Origin: Dickeya solani IPO 2222
GTDB taxonomy: Bacteria > Pseudomonadota > Gammaproteobacteria > Enterobacterales > Enterobacteriaceae
Assembly: GCF_001644705.1 (NCBI RefSeq)
Contig: NZ_CP015137.1
Span: 1,320,001-1,352,000, forward strand
Length of the DNA stretch: 32,000 bases
Direction of reading: 5' to 3'
The notes below the pieces were generated by a model. The model made no database searches. It saw only the letters and a program-made list of their open reading frames with translations, and had not been told where the DNA came from. Each line of letters opens with the position of its first letter. Within the stretch, counting starts at the first letter, position 1. A program made the position numbers and the translations under genes. Below are positions 5,746 through 19,704 of the stretch, in pieces.

Positions 5746-7331
5746 TTCCCGGCTGGCTGTGGCCGGGGCTGCTGGCGGCCGCGCTGTTGACCGGCACCGC
5801 GGCGCTGGCGTTCGCCGCGTTATGGCTGGACGCGCCCGGCGCGCCCTGGCAATCGCTGTGGGATGACAGCTACCTGTGGCATGTCATCCGCTTCAGCTTC
5901 TGGCAGGCGCTGCTGTCGGCGCTGCTTTCCACCCTACCCGCGCTGTTTCTGGCGCGGGCGTTGTACCGCCGCCGCTTTCCCGGCCATCGGTTGCTGTTGC
6001 GCCTGTGCGCGATGACGCTGGTGCTGCCGGTGCTGGTGGCGGTATTCGGCATCCTCAGCGTCTACGGCCGCGAGGGCTGGCTGGCCCGCCTGCTGATGCA
6101 GTTCGGTATCGAATACCGTTTTTCGCCTTACGGTTTACAGGGCATTTTGCTGGCCCACGTCTTTTTTAATCTGCCGCTGGCGACCCGGCTGTTTGTGCAG
6201 GCGCTGGAAGGCATCGCCACCGAGCAGCGCCAGTTGGCGGCGCAGCTTGGCCTGCGCGGCTGGCACTTTTTCCGACTGGTGGAGTGGCCGTGGCTGCGCC
6301 GTCAGCTGTTGCCCGCCGGTGCGCTGATTTTCATGCTGTGTTTCGCCAGCTTCGCCACCGTGCTGGCGCTGGGCGGCGGTCCGCGTGCCACCACTATCGA
6401 ACTGGCGATCTATCAGGCGCTGAGCTTCGATTATGACCCGGCGCGCGCCGCGTTGCTGGCGCTGTTGCAAATGGTGTGCTGCCTGGGGCTGGTGTTGCTC
6501 AGCCAGCGGCTGGGCCAGTTGCTGGCGGTGGGCGCCGGCAATCGCCTGAGTTGGCGCGACCCGCAGGACAGCCGGTTCAGCCGCGTTGCCGATACGCTGC
6601 TGATTGCGGCGGCGCTGCTATTGCTGTTGCCGCCGCTGCTGGCGGTGGTGGTGGACGGCCTGAATCGCTCGCTGCCGGACGTGTTGCGCCAGCCCGCGCT
6701 ATGGCAAACGCTCTGGACCTCGCTGCGCATCGCGCTGGCCGCCGGCGCGCTCAGCGTGGTGCTGACGTTGATGCTACTGTGGAGCAGCCGGGAACTAAAA
6801 CTGCGCCAGCGGCGGCTGCCCGCCCAATTATTGGATGTAAGCGGAATGCTGATTCTGGCGATGCCGGGGATTGTGCTGGCGTCCGGTTTTTTCCTGCTGT
6901 TTAACCGCACCGTCGGGTTACCGGCTTCCCCTTACGGACTGGTGGTATTGACCAACGCGCTGCTGGCCATCCCCTATGCGATGAAAGTACTGGAAAACCC
7001 GATGGTCGACACGGCGGCGCGTTATAGTCTGTTGTGCCAGTCGCTGGATATCCGCGGCTGGCATCGTCTCAGGGTGGTGGAGCTGAAGGCGTTACGCGCG
7101 CCCATCGCGCAGGCGCTGGCCTTTGCCAGCGTGCTGTCGGTGGGCGATTTTGGCATCATCGCCCTGTTCGGCAACGAACAGTTCCGCACCCTGCCGTTTT
7201 ATCTTTATCAGCAGATTGGCGCTTATCGCAGCGCCGACGGCGCGGTGACGGCGCTGCTACTGCTGCTGCTGTGTTTTATGCTGTTTACCCTGATTGAGAA
7301 ACTGGCAGGCCTTAATGATCGCGCTCGATAA
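5721..7331 (+). CDS. thiP: Thiamine ABC transporter permease
   Basis: [13 protein letters not shown]...[21 protein letters not shown]...[23 protein letters not shown]...[14 protein letters not shown] matches E. coli ThiP. The start at 5721 overlaps the thiB 3' end by 25 nt. Confidence 0.9.
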
Positions 7332-8007
7332 GTTAACCTACCTCTACCAACACCTGCCGATGCACTTTGATTTACAGGTGCAGCCCGGCGAACGCATTGC
7401 CATTCTGGGCCCGAGCGGCGCGGGCAAAAGCACCTTGCTCAGCCTGATCGCCGGTTTCCTGCCGGCCGACAGCGGTCGGTTACGGCTTAACGGACAAGAT
7501 CACTTCGCCACGCCGCCGGCAAAACGCCCGGTGTCGATCCTGTTCCAGGAAAATAACCTGTTTCCTCACCTGACGCTGGCGCAGAATATCGCGCTCGGCC
7601 TGCACCCCGGCCTGAAACTGACCGCAGACCAACGAGGGACGCTGCGTGATATCGCCAGCCGCATGGGGCTGTCGGACTTACTGGAACGCCTGCCGTCGCA
7701 GGTGTCCGGCGGCCAACGGCAACGGGTGGCGCTGGCGCGCTGCCTGATTCGCCAGCAGCCAATCCTGCTGCTGGACGAGCCGTTCTCCGCGCTCGACCCG
7801 GCGCTGCGTCAGGAAATGCTGGCGCTGGTGGACGAGATCTGCCGGGATCGCCAGTTGACGCTATTGATGGTATCGCACCAGTTGGAAGACGCCGCGCGCA
7901 TTGCACCGCGCAGCGTACTGGTGGTGGACGGCCGCATCTATCACGATGGCCCAACCGGGGAACTGGCTAACCACCCGGATGCGGCGCGGATCTTGGGTTT
8001 GAGGTGA
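7315..8007 (+). CDS. thiQ: Thiamine ABC transporter ATP-binding protein
   Basis: [20 protein letters not shown]...[11 protein letters not shown] (Walker A)...[13 protein letters not shown] (signature)...[11 protein letters not shown] (Walker B), colinear with E. coli ThiQ. The start at 7315 overlaps the thiP stop. Confidence 0.85.
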
Positions 8008-8037
8008 CAGCTCGGTCTGGGGTGACAGCTTGGTCTG
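8003..8037. repeat. Tandem 17/18-bp direct repeat spanning the thiQ stop codon
   Basis: GGTGACAGCTCGGTCTG (8003-8019) and GGTGACAGCTTGGTCTG (8021-8037) match at 16/17 positions and are separated by one G. Copy 1 contains the thiQ TGA. Confidence 0.8.
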
Positions 8038-8067
8038 AAATGACTGAGTGAAACCCCACCAAAAAAA

Positions 8068-8083
8068 TGTGATCTTCCGCACA
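8068..8083. promoter_or_regulatory. Candidate CRP-cAMP site upstream of ivbL-ilvBN
   Basis: TGTGA-TCTTCC-GCACA against the consensus TGTGA-N6-TCACA (9/10). A possible promoter, TTGTCT(8111-8116)-N18-TTAGAT(8135-8140), would centre the site near -71.5 (inferred). E. coli ilvBN is known to be CRP-activated. Confidence 0.4.
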
Positions 8084-8178
8084 ACTTTGTCTTTTCAGTG
8101 CGACAGAGCCTTGTCTGATTTTCCGCACTCATGGTTAGATGAAGACGCTGATTAACCCAAACGAATATAAGGTTCTCC

Positions 8179-8280
8179 GTGAAACACGCCGCCCCTACTT
8201 TCGCACTACTAAACAACACCGCGCTGCTTGACGCGGTCGTCGTCGTGCGCGTGGTGGTCGTGGTCGGCAGCGCGCCGTAA
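8179..8280 (+). CDS. ivbL: ilvBN leader peptide (Val/Leu-rich attenuation peptide, about 33 aa; start codon uncertain)
   Basis: The frame ending at TAA 8278-8280 reads (V/M)KHAAPTFALLNNTALLDAVVVVRVVVVVGSAP*. E. coli IvbL reads MTTSMLNAKLLPTAPSAAVVVVRVVVVVGNAP. GTG 8179 is preceded by AAGG (8169-8172). The ORF-track entry 8228..8413 is the wrong frame. Confidence 0.75.
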   Translation: MKHAAPTFALLNNTALLDAVVVVRVVVVVGSAP

Positions 8281-8307
8281 CGGGTTCCGAATCAAGCCTA
8301 GATTCAC

Positions 8308-8346
8308 AAACCCCGCCGGCGCAAGCCGAGCGGGGTTTCTTTTTTC
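8308..8346 (+). terminator. ilvBN attenuator (rho-independent terminator after the leader peptide)
   Basis: AAACCCCGC (8308-8316) pairs with GCGGGGTTT (8330-8338) and is followed by CTTTTTTCC. It lies 28 nt after the ivbL stop and about 40 nt before the ilvB ATG. Confidence 0.8.
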
Positions 8347-8387
8347 CACCCTCCCCGCTCCTCCTGACACCGGTTCTGATAAAGGAT

Positions 8388-10058
8388 ATGACTATGCGTT
8401 ATACAGGAGCTGAGCTGATCATCCGTCTGCTGGAGCAGCAAGGCATTACCACAGTGACCGGTATTCCAGGCGGCGCGGCGCTGCCGCTGTACGATGCGTT
8501 GGGGAAAAGCCGCACCATTCGCCACGTACTCGCCCGCCATGAACAGGGGGCTGGATTCATCGCACAGGGTATGGCGCGCGCCAGCGGTAAGGCAGCGGTT
8601 TGCATGGCGTCCAGCGGTCCCGGCGCCACCAACCTGCTCACCGCCATCGCCGACGCCAAACTCGACTCTATTCCGTTGGTGTGTATCACCGGCCAGGTGC
8701 CGTCCGGCATGATCGGCACCGATGCCTTTCAGGAAGTGGACACCTACGGCATCTCGATTCCGGTCACCAAGCACAACTATCTGGTGCGCGACATCAGCGA
8801 GCTGCCGCAGGTGATCAATGACGCCTTCCGACTGGCGCAGTCCGGTCGCCCCGGCCCGGTCTGGGTGGACATTCCCAAAGACGTACAAACGGCCACCATC
8901 GAGCTGGCGGAACTGCCCGCACCGGCAGCGCTGTCCCCGGCCCCTGTCATCGACGCCGACGCCCTGCGCGCCGCCGCCGCCATGATCAATCAGGCCAAAC
9001 GACCGATCCTGTATCTGGGCGGCGGCATCATCAGCGCCGGCGCGCATCGGCAGGCTATCGAGCTGGCGGAACGCGCCGGGCTGCCCACCACCATGACGTT
9101 GATGGCGCTGGGCGCCATGCCGGTGGATCACCCGCTGTCGCTCGGCATGCTCGGCATGCATGCCGCTCGCTACACCAATATGATCCTGCAGCAGTCGGAC
9201 TTGTTGATCGTGCTGGGCGCCCGCTTTGACGATCGCGCTATCGGCAAAGCGGAAGAATTCTGCCCGGATGCCCGCGTGATCCATATCGATATCGATCCAG
9301 CGGAGTTCGGCAAGATTCGCCAGCCGCACGTGGCGCTTCACGCCGATGTGGCTCAGGCGTTGGATCAGTTGCTGCCGCTGGTCGACCATCAGCCGCGCGC
9401 TGACTGGCTCGCCCAGGCGCGCGCCCTGCAACGCGATTTCCCGTTCAGCATGCCCAACGCCGACGATCCGCTCAGCCATTACGGGTTGATCCGCGCCGTG
9501 GCCGAGCAACTGGACGATCAGGCCATCATTACCACCGATGTGGGCCAGCACCAGATGTGGGTAGCGCAGGCGTATCCGCTGCGGCGCTCGCGTCAGTGGC
9601 TGACCTCCGGCGGTTTCGGCACCATGGGTTTTGGCGTGCCCGCGGCTATCGGCGCCGCACTGGCGGAACCGCAGCGCACCGTGGTCTGCTTTTCCGGCGA
9701 CGGCAGCCTGATGATGAACATTCAGGAAATGGCCACCGCCGTGGAAGAGAACCTGAACGTAAAAATCGTGCTGATGAACAACCAGTCGCTGGGGCTGGTG
9801 CACCAGCAGCAGGATCTGTTCTACCAGCAGAATTTTGTGGCCTCCGACTACCGCTATCAGACCAACTTTCTGGCGATTGCCGCCGGATTCGGCTTCGCCA
9901 CTTGCGATCTGAACGCCGCTGAAAACCCGCAAGCCGCCCTGCGCGACGCCCTGCAACAACCCGGCCCGGCGTTAATTCACGCCGCTATCGATATCAACGA
10001 AAAAGTGTTCCCGATGGTACCGCCGGGTGCCGCCAACATTGAGATGATTGGAGATTAA
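8388..10058 (+). CDS. ilvB: Acetolactate synthase I (AHAS I) large subunit
   Basis: ..YTGAELIIRLLEQQGITTVTGIPGG..LPLYDAL...ARHEQGAGFIAQGMAR...GPGATNL.TAIADA.LDSIPL.CITGQVP..MIGTDAFQE.DTYGISIP.TKHNYLV is colinear with E. coli IlvB through to PMVPPGAAN.EM.G. Confidence 0.9.
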   Translation: MTMRYTGAELIIRLLEQQGITTVTGIPGGAALPLYDALGKSRTIRHVLARHEQGAGFIAQGMARASGKAAVCMASSGPGATNLLTAIADAKLDSIPLVCITGQVPSGMIGTDAFQEVDTYGISIPVTKHNYLVRDISELPQVINDAFRLAQSGRPGPVWVDIPKDVQTATIELAELPAPAALSPAPVIDADALRAAAAMINQAKRPILYLGGGIISAGAHRQAIELAERAGLPTTMTLMALGAMPVDHPLSLGMLGMHAARYTNMILQQSDLLIVLGARFDDRAIGKAEEFCPDARVIHIDIDPAEFGKIRQPHVALHADVAQALDQLLPLVDHQPRADWLAQARALQRDFPFSMPNADDPLSHYGLIRAVAEQLDDQAIITTDVGQHQMWVAQAYPLRRSRQWLTSGGFGTMGFGVPAAIGAALAEPQRTVVCFSGDGSLMMNIQEMATAVEENLNVKIVLMNNQSLGLVHQQQDLFYQQNFVASDYRYQTNFLAIAAGFGFATCDLNAAENPQAALRDALQQPGPALIHAAIDINEKVFPMVPPGAANIEMIGD

Positions 10059-10061
10059 CTC

Positions 10062-10355
10062 ATGCAGACCCCATCCATTACCGCACAGGTCACGCTGGAA
10101 CTCTCGGTACGCAACCACCCGGGCGTGATGTCGCACGTGTGCGGGCTATTCGCCCGCCGCGCTTTCAACGTGGAAGGCATCATGTGTATGCCGCTGCCGG
10201 GCAACGAGCAAAGCCGCATCTGGCTACTGGTGAAAGACGACCAGCGCTTGCCGCAGATGATCAGTCAGGTGGAAAAGCTGGAAGACGTGCTGCAGGTGAC
10301 TCGCCACGGCGAAGAGATGCATATCTTTGATCAGGTGGCTGAGTTTTACCGCTGA
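10062..10355 (+). CDS. ilvN: Acetolactate synthase I small (regulatory) subunit
   Basis: The 97-aa product [33 protein letters not shown]...[24 protein letters not shown] matches E. coli IlvN (96 aa). It starts 3 nt after ilvB. Confidence 0.9.
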
Positions 10356-10362
10356 ACCGCAG

Positions 10363-10389
10363 GGGCCATACCGCCCCCCGGTATGGCCC
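10363..10389. terminator. GC-rich hairpin between convergent ilvN and yabI (possible bidirectional terminator, no clear U-run)
   Basis: GGGCCATACCG (10363-10373), loop CCCCC, CGGTATGGCCC (10379-10389): a perfect 11-bp stem. Confidence 0.45.
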
Positions 10390-10400
10390 TCGATCCAAAC

Positions 10401-11168
10401 TCAGCCATTCAGAATTTGCCACAGCAGGCGACGGTACACCGGCATCAACGGATGCTGCCACAACTGCCACAGACTAACGGCGGCGATAACCGACACCAGC
10501 GGCGCCAGCCAGTACAAACGCGAAGCCGTCAACCCACCGGTTGATTCGGCTTTGGCTCCACGACGGGCACGCCACAGGCGCCACACCAGCCAGCCAGCCC
10601 CCCACAGCAAGATAGCCGTGATTAACAGCAGCCACTTGAAACTGCCGCTGTCGGCCTGCTTGGGGATATCGATCGCCACGCCGGCCAGAATGCCGGGCAG
10701 CAGATAAACCGGCGGCCAGGTGAGACAGCCGATGATATTCGGCAACGCAAAGCGCCGGGGCGACAACTCCAGCATCCCCGCCACCATCGGGATCAGCGGA
10801 CGAGTCGGGCCAAAAAACCGCCCAATCAGAATGGTCGCCATATTATGCTGATGCAGCATTTTTTCGGTGCGATACAGGTAAGCTCGGTGCTTTTGCAGGA
10901 ACGACCAGTTATGCAGCCGGTCCTTGAAACGCCAGCCGATAAAATAGGAAATCCAGTCTCCCAGCAGGCAACCGATGATGCCCATGCCCCAGGCCGGATA
11001 CAGCCCCATATTGCCGCTGCCGATCAACGCCCCCAACGACGCCATCATCAGCGTGCCGGGCAACAGCAGCCCCACCAACGCCAGTGACTCCAGAAACGCC
11101 ACCAGCAGTACCGCCGTCAGCGACCAGGCTAACGATTGTGTGATCAGATGCTCCAGCCAGGCTTCCAT
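10401..11168 (-). CDS. yabI: DedA-family inner membrane protein YabI
   Basis: MEAWLEHLITQS...VAFLESLALVGLLLPGT..MA.LGALIGSG...GDWISYFIGWRFK...GRFFGPTRPLIPMVAGML...NIIGCLTWPP.YLLPGILAG.AIDIP is colinear with E. coli YabI. Confidence 0.85.
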   Translation of the reverse strand: MEAWLEHLITQSLAWSLTAVLLVAFLESLALVGLLLPGTLMMASLGALIGSGNMGLYPAWGMGIIGCLLGDWISYFIGWRFKDRLHNWSFLQKHRAYLYRTEKMLHQHNMATILIGRFFGPTRPLIPMVAGMLELSPRRFALPNIIGCLTWPPVYLLPGILAGVAIDIPKQADSGSFKWLLLITAILLWGAGWLVWRLWRARRGAKAESTGGLTASRLYWLAPLVSVIAAVSLWQLWQHPLMPVYRRLLWQILNG

Positions 11169-11429
11169 AAATCTCTACATTTCTGCTTTTTTATGAACAA
11201 AGATAACGGGATGATAGCAGGAAACGGTGGGAATATGGCAGATAGTAGTAAAAGCGCGGCTGACGCGAGGTTAACCATTACTGGACAGCTACGTCCTTGA
11301 AGCAGCAACATTTTGTTGTTATAAAAGCATCACTTTAAGAAAATAAATGGATTGACTCATGTAAGAAGCGAGGATTGCTTTTCCTGTTGGCACATTGCGG
11401 AACAACAGAGTTAAGTTAGGGTAAACAAT

Positions 11430-11996
11430 ATGAAAAAAATAGCACATGCTTCGCTGTTAATAGCGCTATTGGTATCATTACAAGCCTATGCATCTATTAA
11501 TTTAATCAAGAATGAGGATAAAACCCTATCAAGTGAAGTAATAAAATATGGAAATAAAAAAGGGCTAGTTGATATAAAACCCCAGAGCGATCAGAGCTTT
11601 GACATTATTGACGACGGGAAATACATAGGAACAATCATTCCAGCCAAAGGATTTCATAAAAACTATTACCCACTGTGCTTTATTGGTTGGTCAACTGATA
11701 AAAAAACAATATCAAAAATCATCCTATCAATAGGGCAAGGATATTTTGAACTTTCCCTCTGTTCAAAACTTGATGCAATAGGAAAAATAGAGGAAAAGGG
11801 AAGAACCTTTATTGGCTTTGTATACACTGTAGGGTTGAGAGACAGATATGCTCAAAACTACTTTCTCATTGAGCTTAATAGAGAAAAAAGAACTATAGAA
11901 GATAAAAGTCAACTCATTGAAAAATTTCAAAATGATTCAGAAAAAAAGAGCATAGCTGATCTTAGAAGAGATATAAAGAAAATTGATGAGAAATAG
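11430..11996 (+). CDS. Secreted (SPase I signal peptide) protein of unknown function, paralog 1 of a tandem pair
   Basis: MKKIAHASLLIALLVSLQAYA|SI is signal-peptide-like. The C-terminal ~125 aa are about 60-65% identical, by eye, to the next ORF (shared PLCFIGWS, SIGQG.FE, IGFVYTVGLRDR, NYFLIEL). AT-rich codon usage. I recognise no family. Confidence 0.6.
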   Translation: MKKIAHASLLIALLVSLQAYASINLIKNEDKTLSSEVIKYGNKKGLVDIKPQSDQSFDIIDDGKYIGTIIPAKGFHKNYYPLCFIGWSTDKKTISKIILSIGQGYFELSLCSKLDAIGKIEEKGRTFIGFVYTVGLRDRYAQNYFLIELNREKRTIEDKSQLIEKFQNDSEKKSIADLRRDIKKIDEK

Positions 11997-11998
11997 CA

Positions 11999-12556
11999 AT
12001 GAAGAGAATATTGGCAATAATAACATTATCAATGTCACTTCAAGCGCATGCATCAATTACGTTGACGCCGATTGATAGCAGCAATCTATTATTGCAGCTG
12101 TCGATAAAAACACAACCCTTGGGAATAGACCAGATAAAAATAGATAATGGACAATCTTTTGACATTACTGAAAACGGTAAATATCTAGGCACACTAATCC
12201 CTGCCGAGGGTTATTATAGAAAATACAATCCGCTATGCTTTATTGGTTGGTCTATAGACAAAAAAGAAATCAGTAATATTGTTCCATCTATTGGTCAGGG
12301 TGATTTCGAAAGCTCAATCTGCCTAAGTCTCGATGCTGTTGGGAAAATAGAAGTAAAAGAAAAAACATATATAGGATTTGTTTATACAGTTGGATTAAGA
12401 GACAGACGAGCTAAAAACTATTTTTTGATTGAGTTAGATAAAGATAAAATAACGATCGCAGATAAAAGTGCACTTGTCGATAGTCTACAAAATAATAGTG
12501 ATGAAAAAAGCATTGTAATGCTCAGGAAATATTTCTCTCAAAACATCTCACGTTAA
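11999..12556 (+). CDS. Secreted protein of unknown function, paralog 2 of the tandem pair
   Basis: MKRILAIITLSMSLQAHA|SI is signal-peptide-like. It starts 2 nt after the paralog-1 stop (operon). Conserved blocks are as for paralog 1, including two conserved Cys. Confidence 0.6.
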   Translation: MKRILAIITLSMSLQAHASITLTPIDSSNLLLQLSIKTQPLGIDQIKIDNGQSFDITENGKYLGTLIPAEGYYRKYNPLCFIGWSIDKKEISNIVPSIGQGDFESSICLSLDAVGKIEVKEKTYIGFVYTVGLRDRRAKNYFLIELDKDKITIADKSALVDSLQNNSDEKSIVMLRKYFSQNISR

Positions 12557-12602: not shown

Positions 12603-12989
12603 TTATAACAGCAATTCAAAATAAGTAGCATTATCTTCACGATTAACGGAAAGCACAATAAATTTATTTTTATCTGGCGATTCCCATACCTCTCGGTAAC
12701 CATCATCCATATTGAGCGTAAACTTCAATAATTTCAAATAGTTCCTTAACGTCTCAATATCGGTGGTATTTTCAAAATATATACCAGTGACCTGCTTCCC
12801 AGGCCCTTCAGCATCGCCGTGTTTAATTTGATATTTTTGAGATATTTTTGGTGCATTTATTATTATTGGATCAGTTAAACTACTATTATCCGAAGAAGAA
12901 AATTGATGCTCTAATCCGCTATTGGAAATAATAAAATAAGCGATTGGCACACCTAAGACGAAAAAAATAATTATCATTTTCTTTCTCAT
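12603..12989 (-). CDS. Small membrane-anchored or secreted protein; candidate immunity protein for the upstream putative effector
   Basis: The N-terminus MRKKMIIIFFVLGVPIAYFIISNS is a hydrophobic anchor or signal, followed by a Ser-rich linker and a ~90-aa domain. Its ATG (12989-12987) directly abuts the TAA (12992-12990) of the upstream gene, indicating translational coupling. The position matches the usual effector-immunity gene order. Confidence 0.5.
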   Translation of the reverse strand: MRKKMIIIFFVLGVPIAYFIISNSGLEHQFSSSDNSSLTDPIIINAPKISQKYQIKHGDAEGPGKQVTGIYFENTTDIETLRNYLKLLKFTLNMDDGYREVWESPDKNKFIVLSVNREDNATYFELLL

Positions 12990-13691
12990 TTAATCACCAT
13001 TAAAGAAGTTATTATGTATTTCACTACCATCCTCTACTGCAATACCAACTTTATCTGATGTGGAACGAGAGTACGGTTTTATAGTTAACATAAACGATGG
13101 TAAAAAACCTAAGTATGGTCTAACATTTGGATTCTTATCTGGATCAGGAAATAACATCGGCCTGAATGTTTTATTTTTAAATGAACCAATGGGACCATAA
13201 AAATCCCATCGTCTCAAAGCATCCTCTTTACTCACTGGCTTTAATTCAGGAAAGTAATTTTTATTATATATAGCCCTATAAAAACCTAGTAAATCAGATA
13301 CTAAATCTTCACCACTAAATCCACTATCGGTGATAGCACTGAAAGGGAATGAATCCTGCAAATTTTCAAATCGACAAGCTACTTTCATCATCATGGCAAG
13401 AGCAATACTATATCTTTCATATAAAGTAGTCCCTTTTTTTATTCTCCAAACAACATATTTAGATATTCCAATATTTTTTTTGAATTTCCACATCCCTTGA
13501 AAATACTTAACATCATAGTATGGTTGACTTCCATTTTCACCTGCTTCGAACTGATTAAGCAAAGCTTTTATATCAAAGCCTTGAGCATGCCCCAAGTCAA
13601 CCCACCCTAAAACTTCTGTATATACTAAACCATAGCTTTTAAAAGTAGCTTCAGAGCCATTTAATATATCTGAGCGTTTACTCATAGTCAT
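12990..13691 (-). CDS. Hypothetical 233-aa protein; candidate Hcp-dependent T6SS effector of unknown activity
   Basis: It lies 34 nt downstream of an Hcp gene on the same strand and is followed by a coupled membrane-anchored ORF. It has no signal peptide or TM segment. I recognise no family motif: no HExxH, no exact GxSxG, a single Cys. Confidence 0.5.
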   Translation of the reverse strand: MTMSKRSDILNGSEATFKSYGLVYTEVLGWVDLGHAQGFDIKALLNQFEAGENGSQPYYDVKYFQGMWKFKKNIGISKYVVWRIKKGTTLYERYSIALAMMMKVACRFENLQDSFPFSAITDSGFSGEDLVSDLLGFYRAIYNKNYFPELKPVSKEDALRRWDFYGPIGSFKNKTFRPMLFPDPDKNPNVRPYLGFLPSFMLTIKPYSRSTSDKVGIAVEDGSEIHNNFFNGD

Positions 13692-13725: not shown

Positions 13726-14205
13726 CTACATTGTAGAATCTCTCCAAAACATATAAGAATTTGTGCGTGCAGCAACATTTTCCCACTCAATAGTATTGAA
13801 CTTAATAGAAATATTCTCACATGGCTGTATATCGTTATGCGTTAATGAATTTGGATAAAAACAGCTAATATTTGATATTATTGCGCCTAAAAGGTTTATC
13901 TTGAAATATAATTCAATCCCTCCAGAAATACTGGTTCTGAAAATGGAAAAATTACATGTCAGCGTTTCATTTTCATTTAATGCTTGGGATATTAATGGCG
14001 TGGCTTTATCTATTGGCTTTCGTACCTGAACAGGATGAAATGATATGTTTTCTTCACGCATAACATTAGTATTTAATTCATATATAAATATCTCATTCTC
14101 ATGCCCAGCCTGATACAGGTTCCCTATTGATGGAGCGGTAGAACATCCAGCTGATATAAGCCCTTGTTTTTCTCCATGAAGCGAAAGGTAAATAATGTTT
14201 GCCAT
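13726..14205 (-). CDS. hcp: Hcp (TssD) family type VI secretion tube/chaperone protein, orphan copy
   Basis: The 159-aa product MANIIYLSLHGEKQGLISAGCS..SIGN.YQ.GHE..I....L...V........H.P....KPIDKATPL...A...E.L...F.F.RTS..GG.ELY.KI.L..A.I......P......D.QP.E.I...N.IEW has the length and N-terminal pattern of Hcp1-family proteins (compare MANLIYLTLNGKQQGLISAGCST.. type sequences). No other T6SS core genes are in the window. Confidence 0.75.
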   Translation of the reverse strand: MANIIYLSLHGEKQGLISAGCSTAPSIGNLYQAGHENEIFIYELNTNVMREENISFHPVQVRKPIDKATPLISQALNENETLTCNFSIFRTSISGGIELYFKINLLGAIISNISCFYPNSLTHNDIQPCENISIKFNTIEWENVAARTNSYMFWRDSTM

Positions 14206-17987: not shown

Positions 17988-19124
17988 TTACGGATTGATC
18001 ACCGTTTTAAACACCATTTCGCCGCCTTTCACTTCGTTGATCACCGCCGGACGAATGGCGTCGCCGTCTTTCAGGGTCAGGGTGCCGGTGATGCCGGTGA
18101 AGTTGCTGGTGGCGCGGATCGCCTTGTTGACGCAGACGCGATCGTGCGGATCGCTACAGGTGTTCATCGCATTGACGATCATCTTGTAAGCATCCGCCGT
18201 CATCGCTCCCCAGGTGTGGGTCGGTTCCTTATATTTGGCGGTCCAGGCTTTGATGAACTTTTCCCCTTCCGGCGTCTGCTCTTTGGCGTTCGGCGAGTAG
18301 TAATCGGTGGTCATCCACCCTTCCACCGCGTCCTGCCCCATTTTGAAGAACACCGGGTCCGCCGCCAAACCATCGCCGCCGACCACCGGCACCTTCAGCC
18401 CGAGCTGCTTGGCCTGCACGGCGATCAGCGCGCCTTCGGTGTAATAAATCGGCATGTAGATCACGTCCACATTGTGGGATTTGATGGTGGAGAGCTGGGC
18501 TTTGAAATCTTTGCTGCCGCCGGGCGCCTGCACTTCAATCGGAATGGTGCCGCCGTTTTTCAGGAACTGGGTGCGGAACGATTTGGCCAGCCCGACCGAG
18601 TAGTCGTTGCTGCTATCGAACATGATGGCGGCTTTCTTCGCCTTCAGGTCGCGGGTCGCCAGATTGGCGCCGACCACGCCCTGAAAACTGTCGGAGAAGC
18701 AGACGCGGCTGACGTACTCCTTGCCTTTGGTTACACGATCGTTGGTGGCGGTCGGCGAGACGATCGGGGTTTTGGTGTCTTCCGCCATCTTGGTCATCGC
18801 CATGGTATTGGTGGAGGTCACCTCGCCGATCACCGCATCCACTTTATCGCTGGATACCAGGCGCTGCATGGCGGTGGCCGCTTCCACCTTGTCGCTCTTG
18901 TCGTCAATCACCACCAGCTTGATGGTGTCGCCATTCTTCAGTTTGGTTTCGATACCGTTAATCAGCTCCAGTCCTTTCAGAGACGGCTGACCGTAACCGC
19001 TCAATGCACCGCTCAGGGGCAATACCACGCCAATCTTGATGTCATCCGCCCACGCCCCCACCGAAGCCAGTGAAGACGATACGGCTACCGCTGCGACAGT
19101 AAATCTGAAAAATTTGTTCTTCAT
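17988..19124 (-). CDS. HAAT-family periplasmic substrate-binding protein (Leu/Ile/Val-binding-protein fold)
   Basis: From ATG 19124 (GAAGAGG RBS): MKNKFFRFTVAAVAVSSSLASVGAWA|DDIKIGVVLPLSGALSGYG, a signal peptide plus a type-I PBP N-terminus typical of LivJ/K-like proteins. The ORF-track start at 19151 is probably too far upstream. Confidence 0.8.
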   Translation of the reverse strand: MKNKFFRFTVAAVAVSSSLASVGAWADDIKIGVVLPLSGALSGYGQPSLKGLELINGIETKLKNGDTIKLVVIDDKSDKVEAATAMQRLVSSDKVDAVIGEVTSTNTMAMTKMAEDTKTPIVSPTATNDRVTKGKEYVSRVCFSDSFQGVVGANLATRDLKAKKAAIMFDSSNDYSVGLAKSFRTQFLKNGGTIPIEVQAPGGSKDFKAQLSTIKSHNVDVIYMPIYYTEGALIAVQAKQLGLKVPVVGGDGLAADPVFFKMGQDAVEGWMTTDYYSPNAKEQTPEGEKFIKAWTAKYKEPTHTWGAMTADAYKMIVNAMNTCSDPHDRVCVNKAIRATSNFTGITGTLTLKDGDAIRPAVINEVKGGEMVFKTVINP

Positions 19125-19636
19125 GATCGCCTCTTCAAAAATAAAGATCACATTCCAGTCGTGAAATGACGCTGCATACAGGGTGATAAAAAGAAGATCT
19201 GTGTAACAGGGTTATCTGCTATTCATCAGGGAAGAGGCAGCAATAAATATGCCAAAAGCACGAGAACAATTAATGTATTAATAATCAAAACATAAAAGAA
19301 AAAAATATGAGTAATTCCCACATCCCGCAGAACCGCCTTTGACGGCCATGCACCAATTCATCACCGTGATGCATTTTATTAGTGCGAAAACGATATTAGT
19401 TTTCACAGGTAAATCAACCAATAGCAAAATATGCAATATGGGCGATCAGACGTTTCCCCATAAATGTATTATTCTCTGTCTATTATTTTTCAACACGCCG
19501 GCTTCAGCGATTATTTCTGGAATAGTTTCATTTTCATCGTTTTATTCTGAATGAAATACCGTCGGGTTAAATAAATAAACATTCCTAACAACGATGCAAC
19601 ATCGTGATCTGACAGCCACAATATGGAGAATGCAAC

Positions 19637-19665
19637 TGGACAAATACTGTATATATATACATAAT
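19637..19665 (+). promoter_or_regulatory. Candidate sigma70 promoter of polB
   Basis: TGGACA (19637-19642) - 17 nt - CATAAT (19660-19665), about 40 nt upstream of the polB ATG. It overlaps the LexA-box-like sequence. Confidence 0.5.
19645..19664. promoter_or_regulatory. LexA (SOS) box upstream of polB
   Basis: TACTGTATATATATACATAA matches the consensus TACTG(TA)5CAGTA at 18/20; the right half is CAT instead of CAG. polB (dinA) is a known SOS gene in E. coli. Confidence 0.6.
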
Positions 19666-19704
19666 TCACCGTATTGTTTCACTGCTTCCTCTGGCTAGCA
19701 CCTC

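Follow-up and report, generated by a model that had tools for sequence, protein, structure and literature searches.

In the window of 32,000 nucleotides (nt) analysed here, a stretch of DNA from Dickeya solani IPO 2222 to whose positions coordinates refer unless another record is named, two adjacent genes, A and B, probably encode periplasmic immunity proteins against an Hcp-linked muramidase of the DUF3380 type, a presumed type VI secretion system (T6SS) effector, and would persist in D. solani as orphan shields. An earlier note on this DNA had suggested that the pair belongs to an orphan or extra immunity array, and this suggestion is supported both by the pairing of the family with the muramidase in other genomes and by a deletion scar in the window itself. 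The direct observations behind the proposal are homology, adjacency, linkage to hcp and tss genes, signal asymmetry, the scar and purifying selection. The two genes are:

11430-11996, plus strand: gene A, an open reading frame (ORF) of 188 residues, paralog type A, predicted periplasmic immunity protein against a DUF3380-type T6SS muramidase.
11999-12556, plus strand: gene B, an ORF of 185 residues, paralog type B, predicted immunity paralog, found as the second array gene in other Dickeya.

The coordinates and lengths given in the earlier note, and its gap of 2 nt between the genes (TAG-CA-ATG), match the ORF list exactly, and its description of the two proteins also holds on measurement. A and B share 55% identity across 180 residues (BLASTP, E 2e-67), being 31% for residues 22-60, 60% for residues 61-188 and 70% for residues 64-150, which agrees with the divergent N-terminal part and the C-terminal identity of about 60-65% that had been described. 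Signal peptides, assigned by sequence inspection, are seen at both N-termini, where a K/R-rich stretch is followed by a hydrophobic one and an AxA-S end (LQAYA-S in A and LQAHA-S in B, the hyphen before the serine marking the likely cleavage), in agreement with the cleavable appearance noted before. The two conserved cysteines correspond to C83 and C111, invariant in 40 Dickeya sequences and the sole fully invariant residues across the wider family, in which Q55, F57, F84, G102 and E107 are near-invariant; C83 and C111 are predicted to form a disulfide. Both genes lie in an islet of ~3.2 kb with a guanine plus cytosine (GC) content of about 33%, between flanks of about 60% GC. To its left are two acetolactate-synthase-like genes and a gene of the DedA family, and to its right is the ABC ATPase gene of a liv-like operon. 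On the minus strand, hcp, an ORF of 233 residues and an abutting ORF of 128 residues converge on B, leaving 46 nt between the convergent ends of B and the 128-residue ORF.

In the same slot between dedA and hcp, the common layout in Dickeya is a plus-strand gene for a protein of ~283 residues, followed by one to four genes of the A/B family and then by a convergent hcp. This layout is seen in D. dianthicola (locus L003), D. fangzhongdai (L007), D. oryzae (L001), D. dadantii subsp. dieffenbachiae (L005) and D. undicola (L002, a contig that stops short of the hcp position). The 283-residue protein contains the N-acetylmuramidase domain PF11860 (DUF3380, E 1.3e-58) together with PF01471 (PG_binding_1), and aligns over its full length to the solved DUF3380 endolysins 7q4s, 5nm7 and 7rum (E 1e-29 to 1e-35). 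Beyond Dickeya, two hcp-muramidase-family units are present within the main T6SS cluster of Erwinia oleae (L016), and in Mixta intestinalis (L017) and Pantoea dispersa (L019) the muramidase-family pair comes directly after hcp inside the core T6SS cluster; in Erwinia, Mixta and Pantoea the pair sits within clusters of the order tssM-tagF-tssA-tssBC-hcp...tagH. Also, a family member encoded on a metagenome contig (L011/L012), whose identity to A is 22% by BLASTP and 17% in an alignment of eight pairs, is found directly behind a PG_binding_1 plus PF11860 protein. Family membership of the downstream ORFs was verified by hidden Markov models (HMMs), with E values of 1e-57 to 1e-66. A family gene is therefore co-oriented with, and directly downstream of, the muramidase gene in five Dickeya species, in E. 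oleae (twice), in Mixta, in P. dispersa and on the metagenome contig, and hcp adjoins in every genome locus whose contig extends that far. The survey of genomic context that the earlier note had called for thus finds, for no fewer than five genera or lineages, members of the family directly downstream of a T6SS/Hcp-linked muramidase with PF11860, and linkage to a predicted toxin gene in other genomes is found in Dickeya, Erwinia, Mixta and Pantoea.

Inspection of the N-termini in eight of these pairs shows the same asymmetry in all eight, the muramidase having no N-terminal hydrophobic signal and the downstream protein having one. Moreover, muramidases that are 47-49% identical to one another are accompanied by immunity proteins that are 16-24% identical, and the divergence of the two partners is correlated (Spearman rho of 0.83 over 28 comparisons that are not phylogenetically independent). 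Sequence change is quicker in the immunity proteins than in the effectors, and the two change in parallel.

The same loci can be viewed in another way, with A and B acting as general periplasmic inhibitors of lysozymes or muramidases, or as envelope proteins, rather than as strict T6SS immunity proteins; variants of this explanation are a defence against phage endolysin-type enzymes and the housekeeping control of a domesticated endolysin. Such a role would suit a partner enzyme with the architecture of a phage endolysin, whose export by the T6SS is deduced, and whose operon in Dickeya is convergent to hcp and not co-transcribed with it. However, the pair in Erwinia, Mixta and Pantoea comes next to hcp, immediately behind it, in the core tss cluster, a position that corresponds to the effector slot of the "hcp island" in the available portions of PMC3235180 and PMC9796082. 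Also, no prophage genes flank the muramidase loci inspected, which likewise contain no holin or spanin gene, and A and B have no profile match to LprI (PF07007), PliC/MliC or Ivy in Pfam and NCBIfam scans to E <= 1. We therefore regard a general inhibitor as an unlikely identity for A and B, and T6SS immunity as the preferred one.

Some members of the family occur in a different setting. In P. ananatis and E. billingiae they lack an accompanying PF11860 gene and are found among the LprI (lysozyme-inhibitor) genes of the hcp island, as orphans; published orphan immunity arrays of Pantoea (PMC9796082) and Vibrio cholerae (PMC5361080) show this pattern too. Genes with an LprI domain (PF07007) are interleaved with family members in four loci from hcp islands of Pantoea, Erwinia and Mixta (L013 8632-11537, L020 1742-7010, L017 5490-5885 and L019 5993-6505), and in E. 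billingiae one of them directly follows a different PG_binding_1 protein, which suggests several parallel muramidase-inhibitor pairings in the same hcp island. In a Shewanella sp. (L018 7001-8315), a PF11860 protein of 41% identity is followed by an overlapping gene of 145 residues with no match to the family HMM, in a region where genes for Imm49 and a lipase are present as well; the partner of more distant muramidases may thus belong to another immunity family.

Within Dickeya, the array genes cluster into four types, A to D, with 45-59% identity between types and 73-98% within them, and the order along the array is always A-B-C-D. The full set A-B-C-D is found in D. dianthicola, A, B and D in D. 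fangzhongdai, A, B and C in D. oryzae, C and D in D. undicola, D in D. dadantii subsp. dieffenbachiae, and A and B in the window. Gene A shares 84-91% identity with the gene that comes first behind the muramidase in D. dianthicola and D. fangzhongdai (L003 and L007), and for B the identity to the second gene of the array in L001, L003 and L007 is 74-84%. The synonymous divergence (dS) between A and B is saturated, and this, along with the fixed order, indicates that the duplication is old and that lineages differ by loss. A recent tandem duplication in D. solani was considered and rejected, given the saturated dS and the orthologs of 74-95% identity that hold the same array position elsewhere. 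What the earlier note had described as tandem duplicated, diversifying paralogs are then ancient types whose order has been kept across Dickeya.

The window retains the traces of the effector gene that stands before the array in the other species, in two adjoining segments:

11169-11358, plus strand: retained upstream (promoter/leader) region of the former muramidase gene, now the sole upstream region of A and B.
11359-11427, plus strand: muramidase deletion scar of ~70 nt, in which the first ~34 nt of the gene are kept and joined to ~35 nt.

A comparison of window positions 11100-11392 with L007 4884-5176 gives 93.5% identity over 293 nt, and the same region of the window is 95.7% identical to L005 6777-7169, the counterpart in both loci being the intergenic region between the DedA and muramidase genes plus the start of the latter. 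Positions 11359-11392, the first 34 nt of the muramidase gene, correspond to L007 5143-5176, and at the start of the scar ATG-GAA is mutated to ATG-TAA, that is, a stop at codon 2. The following ~35 nt, which the tools left unaligned, are probably the 3' end of the muramidase gene. The alignment resumes at window position 11428, equivalent to L007 5999 and just past the muramidase stop at 5994, and ~0.8 kb of the muramidase gene is missing by internal deletion. D. dadantii subsp. dieffenbachiae has the same junction (L005 9324-9424), with an unmutated ATG-GAA start, and the window and L005 are 95.4% identical here over 1611 nt. Moreover, the scar architecture is present in all 24 D. solani contigs read. 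A scan of the islet for sigma-70 promoters and terminators gave nothing better than shuffled sequences.

The L005 locus (6777-10962, CM001978) is composite, with the muramidase upstream region present twice. The first copy leads into a frameshifted muramidase gene, a type D gene and hcp; the second, to the right of the first, leads into the scar, A, B truncated to 124 residues, and an N-terminally cut homolog of the 128-residue gene.

Selection on the two genes was evaluated from the ratio of nonsynonymous to synonymous divergence (dN/dS). In comparison with orthologs that stand behind an intact effector, values of 0.12-0.23 are obtained for A and 0.15-0.32 for B, with 0.03-0.09 for dedA. The dN/dS analysis proposed in the earlier note gives purifying selection and not the diversification that had been supposed. 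Between the window and L005, gene A carries 10 synonymous and 9 nonsynonymous codon changes (dN/dS 0.22), a smaller nonsynonymous share than the neutral expectation of 76% (binomial p 0.0066). Because the junction is common to the window and L005, the divergence between these copies of A probably arose in the orphan state, provided that the deletion predates the split of the two lineages. As judged from these substitutions, A has probably been under purifying selection since the shared deletion.

This bears on the explanation that the two genes have lost their function, as remnants of an effector-immunity locus in decay, and are becoming pseudogenes. The deletion of the effector, the truncation of B to 124 residues in L005 and in one D. 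solani assembly, and dN/dS values for A and B (0.12-0.32) above those of dedA would all be in line with such decay. Nonetheless, the window and 23 of the 24 D. solani contigs read carry both ORFs intact, the nonsynonymous changes in A since the shared deletion are significantly fewer than under neutrality, and the upstream region of the two genes is conserved at 93-96%. Decay is accordingly held to be improbable, and the retention of A and B as working immunity genes is favored.

The D. solani assembly GCA_000400565.1 (L009 6570-7984) is 99.9-100% identical to the window, yet its B gene is called at 124 residues. In the same assembly, the equivalent of window positions 12752-13574, which comprise parts of the 128-residue and 233-residue genes, is missing, and hcp is called at 136 residues; these differences could reflect either true variation between strains or an error of the assembly.

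Several observations weigh against immunity to the muramidase as the function of A and B, or against its generality. First, delivery of the muramidase by the T6SS is deduced from hcp and tss linkage only, and the combination of PG_binding_1 and DUF3380 is also that of phage endolysins. Second, the orphan status of the genes applies at the level of the locus only, and in two atypical genomes under the D. solani label, with larger chromosomes (5.07 and 5.25 Mb), the muramidase is still intact, from which it follows that loss of the effector is not universal under that species label. Third, the truncations of B mentioned above count here as well, and selection on B may be weaker. Fourth, A and B may not be neutralising partners of every muramidase allele, D. 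undicola having C and D only. Finally, one effector is trailed by up to four paralogs of ~50% identity. With regard to the alleles, the Dickeya muramidases (clusters) span 80-96% identity, and that of D. undicola (83% identical) is followed first by type C; such an arrangement, as far as sequences can tell, is compatible with allele-specific immunity of the paralogs. The atypical genomes labelled D. solani also encode other paralog types (P0253, P0260; P0035, P0040).

The opposite side of the islet is occupied by three minus-strand genes:

13726-14205, minus strand: hcp (tssD), PF05638 E 1.4e-18, TIGR03344 E 2.9e-48.
12990-13691, minus strand: 233-residue protein, candidate Hcp-linked effector, 34 nt downstream of hcp.
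12603-12989, minus strand: 128-residue protein whose N-terminus is hydrophobic and which probably acts as immunity partner to the 233-residue protein; its gene abuts the stop of the 233-residue gene.

The profile matches of hcp corroborate the convergence of A and B on an Hcp operon that the earlier note had pointed out. The Hcp of the window is strongly divergent, with a proportion of nonsynonymous differences (pN) of about 0.32 to the Hcp encoded in the same slot of L001, L003, L005 and L007, and hcp together with the 233-residue and 128-residue genes looks like a swapped-in cassette that replaces the type C and type D genes and the old hcp. Searches of Pfam, NCBIfam and PDB sequences returned nothing significant for the 233-residue and 128-residue proteins. 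Homologs of the former, with 55-59% identity, are found on plasmids of Pantoea, Enterobacter and Erwinia. For example, in plasmid records from Enterobacter ludwigii and Pantoea agglomerans (L021 3001-4120 and L022 3004-4130) the homolog is followed by an overlapping gene of ~141 residues, whose product is a distant homolog of the 128-residue protein of the window (24-25% identity, pairwise E 2e-6 to 5e-6). In these two records, the ones inspected, neither hcp nor a gene of the A/B family is listed near the 233-residue homologs, and A gives no tblastn match in the whole plasmid collection. From its sequence, the 233/128 pair looks like a toxin-immunity-like two-gene unit of its own.

The earlier note had asked whether either paralog protects against the 233-residue protein, in which case A and/or B would provide extra immunity against this Hcp-linked neighbour. 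The genes do share one low-GC islet, and the convergent gene ends are the 46 nt apart given above. However, genes of types A and B are found in the D. dianthicola, D. fangzhongdai and D. oryzae loci, which lack the 233/128 pair, and in the window A and B lie on the strand opposite to the 233-residue gene and keep the upstream region of the muramidase. Moreover, the 233-residue gene already has its own abutting 128-residue partner with a hydrophobic N-terminus, and in the two plasmid records its homologs form a bicistron with a 128-like gene where no A/B family member is listed nearby, so an immunity role of A and B towards it is unlikely. The 233-residue protein is most likely not the toxin that A and B counter, and this pairing is given a very small chance, lower than the other alternatives; the muramidase stays the preferred target. 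Further to the right, a second dip in GC content (about 46-49%) at window positions 18500-19700 corresponds to the 5' part and upstream region of the gene for a 387-residue periplasmic binding protein, whose counterpart in other Dickeya loci is a Peripla_BP_5/6 protein, and this segment is otherwise unremarkable.

A and B themselves have no match in Pfam or NCBIfam (scans to E <= 1), and PDB sequence searches give nothing for either of them (phmmer, no hit below E 0.85). The AlphaFold2 model of A, built from a 40-sequence alignment, has a mean predicted local distance difference test score (pLDDT) of 86.7 and a predicted template modelling score (pTM) of 0.81. It shows mostly beta strands past the signal segment, which is modelled as a helix of low confidence, and short helices close to both ends. 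A Foldseek comparison of this model with the PDB gives a best E of 0.055 and template modelling (TM) scores <= 0.32, and one with BFVD a best E of 0.0086 and TM scores <= 0.34 (query-normalised), with no credible neighbour in either case. Homology to a non-immunity family, the outcome that the earlier note had set against its own proposal, was found in none of these searches (Pfam, NCBIfam, PDB and Foldseek).

With respect to distribution, the window protein is 100% identical to a D. solani protein. A first homolog search gave 43 clusters at 90% identity, all the named ones being from Dickeya and all annotated as hypothetical, and an exhaustive profile search of 1.84 billion representatives gave 34 at E <= 1e-3. 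Other genera were reached by the exhaustive profile search, whereas a word-indexed search with a broad alignment mostly re-found Dickeya. By cluster look-up, the members outside Dickeya come from Pantoea dispersa, P. ananatis, Erwinia oleae, E. billingiae, Mixta intestinalis and metagenomes. Some Erwinia and metagenome members carry long C-terminal extensions past the domain of ~180 residues (P0053 with 372 residues, P0057 with 283, P0061 with 280 and P0075 with 333), one extension in the family being a proline- and glutamine-rich repeat region. The P. ananatis homolog (P0097, UniProt W8DUD9) is named "AgxX" in UniProt, and a literature search on this name returned only unrelated papers on an antimicrobial coating. 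Also, no paper naming or testing the A/B family, or the DUF3380 effector of Dickeya, Erwinia and Pantoea, was found in the literature search. The A/B family is thus an unnamed and structurally unassigned family within a known kind of system.

Regarding the mechanism, A and B would be exported by the Sec pathway to the periplasm. Their cognate effector would be the signal-less PG_binding_1 plus PF11860 muramidase of ~283 residues, presumably secreted by the T6SS, and, by analogy with other T6SS immunity proteins that counter cell-wall hydrolases, A and B may capture this enzyme on its arrival in the periplasm by binding it, and so block it. An internal deletion of ~0.8 kb removed the muramidase gene from the D. 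solani lineage of the window while the upstream region, A and B were retained, and a different cassette of hcp with the 233-residue and 128-residue genes occupies the other side of the slot. In its present state, the pair would most likely protect D. solani from T6SS attack by muramidase-carrying Dickeya.

These proposals assign a testable function to a family so far annotated only as "hypothetical protein" and to its partner, which would be an endolysin-type DUF3380 muramidase acting as an Hcp-linked T6SS effector in plant-associated Enterobacterales. The D. solani locus would be a clean natural case of a weapon lost and a shield kept, with a datable scar and continued selection, and would bear on competition among soft-rot pathogens that share hosts. 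Moreover, since the predicted fold is confident and has no structural neighbour, a muramidase might be found, from the structure of a complex, to be inhibited here in a novel manner. A more speculative and rather doubtful extension is that the family represents a class of muramidase inhibitors with a new structure, that the ancient types A to D each neutralise different alleles of the DUF3380 muramidase present among Dickeya, and that the retained set decides on coexistence or displacement among Dickeya. If this were true, the set of paralogs kept, here A and B without the weapon, would decide which Dickeya species coexist or displace one another when they infect the same plant, as might D. 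solani and D. dianthicola, the latter with the muramidase and A-B-C-D.

Among known systems, Whitney et al. are said to have described in 2013 the Tse3-Tsi3 and Tge2-Tgi2 pairs, reportedly T6SS muramidase or glycoside hydrolase effectors with periplasmic immunity proteins. The Dickeya pair resembles them in outline, with a signal-less peptidoglycan glycoside hydrolase and a periplasmic immunity protein encoded downstream. However, unlike Tsi3 and Tgi2, A has no sequence match to any PDB chain, and the best Foldseek TM score is 0.32; also, the catalytic domain of the effector is PF11860/DUF3380, not identified here as one of the Tge families. As in the DUF3380 phage endolysins 7q4s, 5nm7 and 7rum, the missing partner enzyme has the PG_binding_1 plus PF11860 architecture and aligns over the full length; a further DUF3380 endolysin is Gp110 of a Salmonella phage (Rodriguez-Rubio et al. 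2016, as cited in the available portion of PMC10100999). In contrast to the phage enzymes, those of Dickeya, Erwinia and Pantoea are chromosomal, linked to hcp or tss genes and followed by a dedicated periplasmic protein. On the other hand, A and B share with the periplasmic lysozyme inhibitors LprI (PF07007), PliC/MliC and Ivy the features of small, Sec-exported periplasmic proteins that are predicted to neutralise muramidases, and differ from them in having no Pfam match at E <= 1 and a beta-rich predicted fold without a PDB neighbour.

Orphan T6SS immunity arrays and peptidoglycan hydrolase effectors of hcp islands are already known from what is available of PMC9796082, PMC5361080, PMC3942780 and PMC3235180. 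In these portions, orphan immunity arrays are described for the hcp islands of Pantoea and Erwinia (Carobbi et al. 2022, PMC9796082; Shyntum et al. 2014, PMC3942780; for the islands also De Maayer et al. 2011, PMC3235180) and for Vibrio cholerae (Kirchberger et al. 2017, PMC5361080), where PF11860 is noted as a T6SS effector domain of I-type modules (PMC5361080). The families named in these portions are Tai4, ACP-like, LprI and Vgi, and the A/B family is not among them. Also, unlike the hcp islands of Pantoea and Erwinia, the hcp islet of Dickeya stands alone, with dedA on one side and the liv genes on the other, outside the core cluster. The shared plan is an hcp-adjacent effector followed by immunity genes with signal peptides, the loss or displacement of the effector with the immunity genes kept, and a new cassette, here the divergent hcp with the 233-residue and 128-residue genes, beside the old immunity genes. 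Nonetheless, the loss of the effector in D. solani is marked by the scar of an internal deletion, and not by displacement alone.

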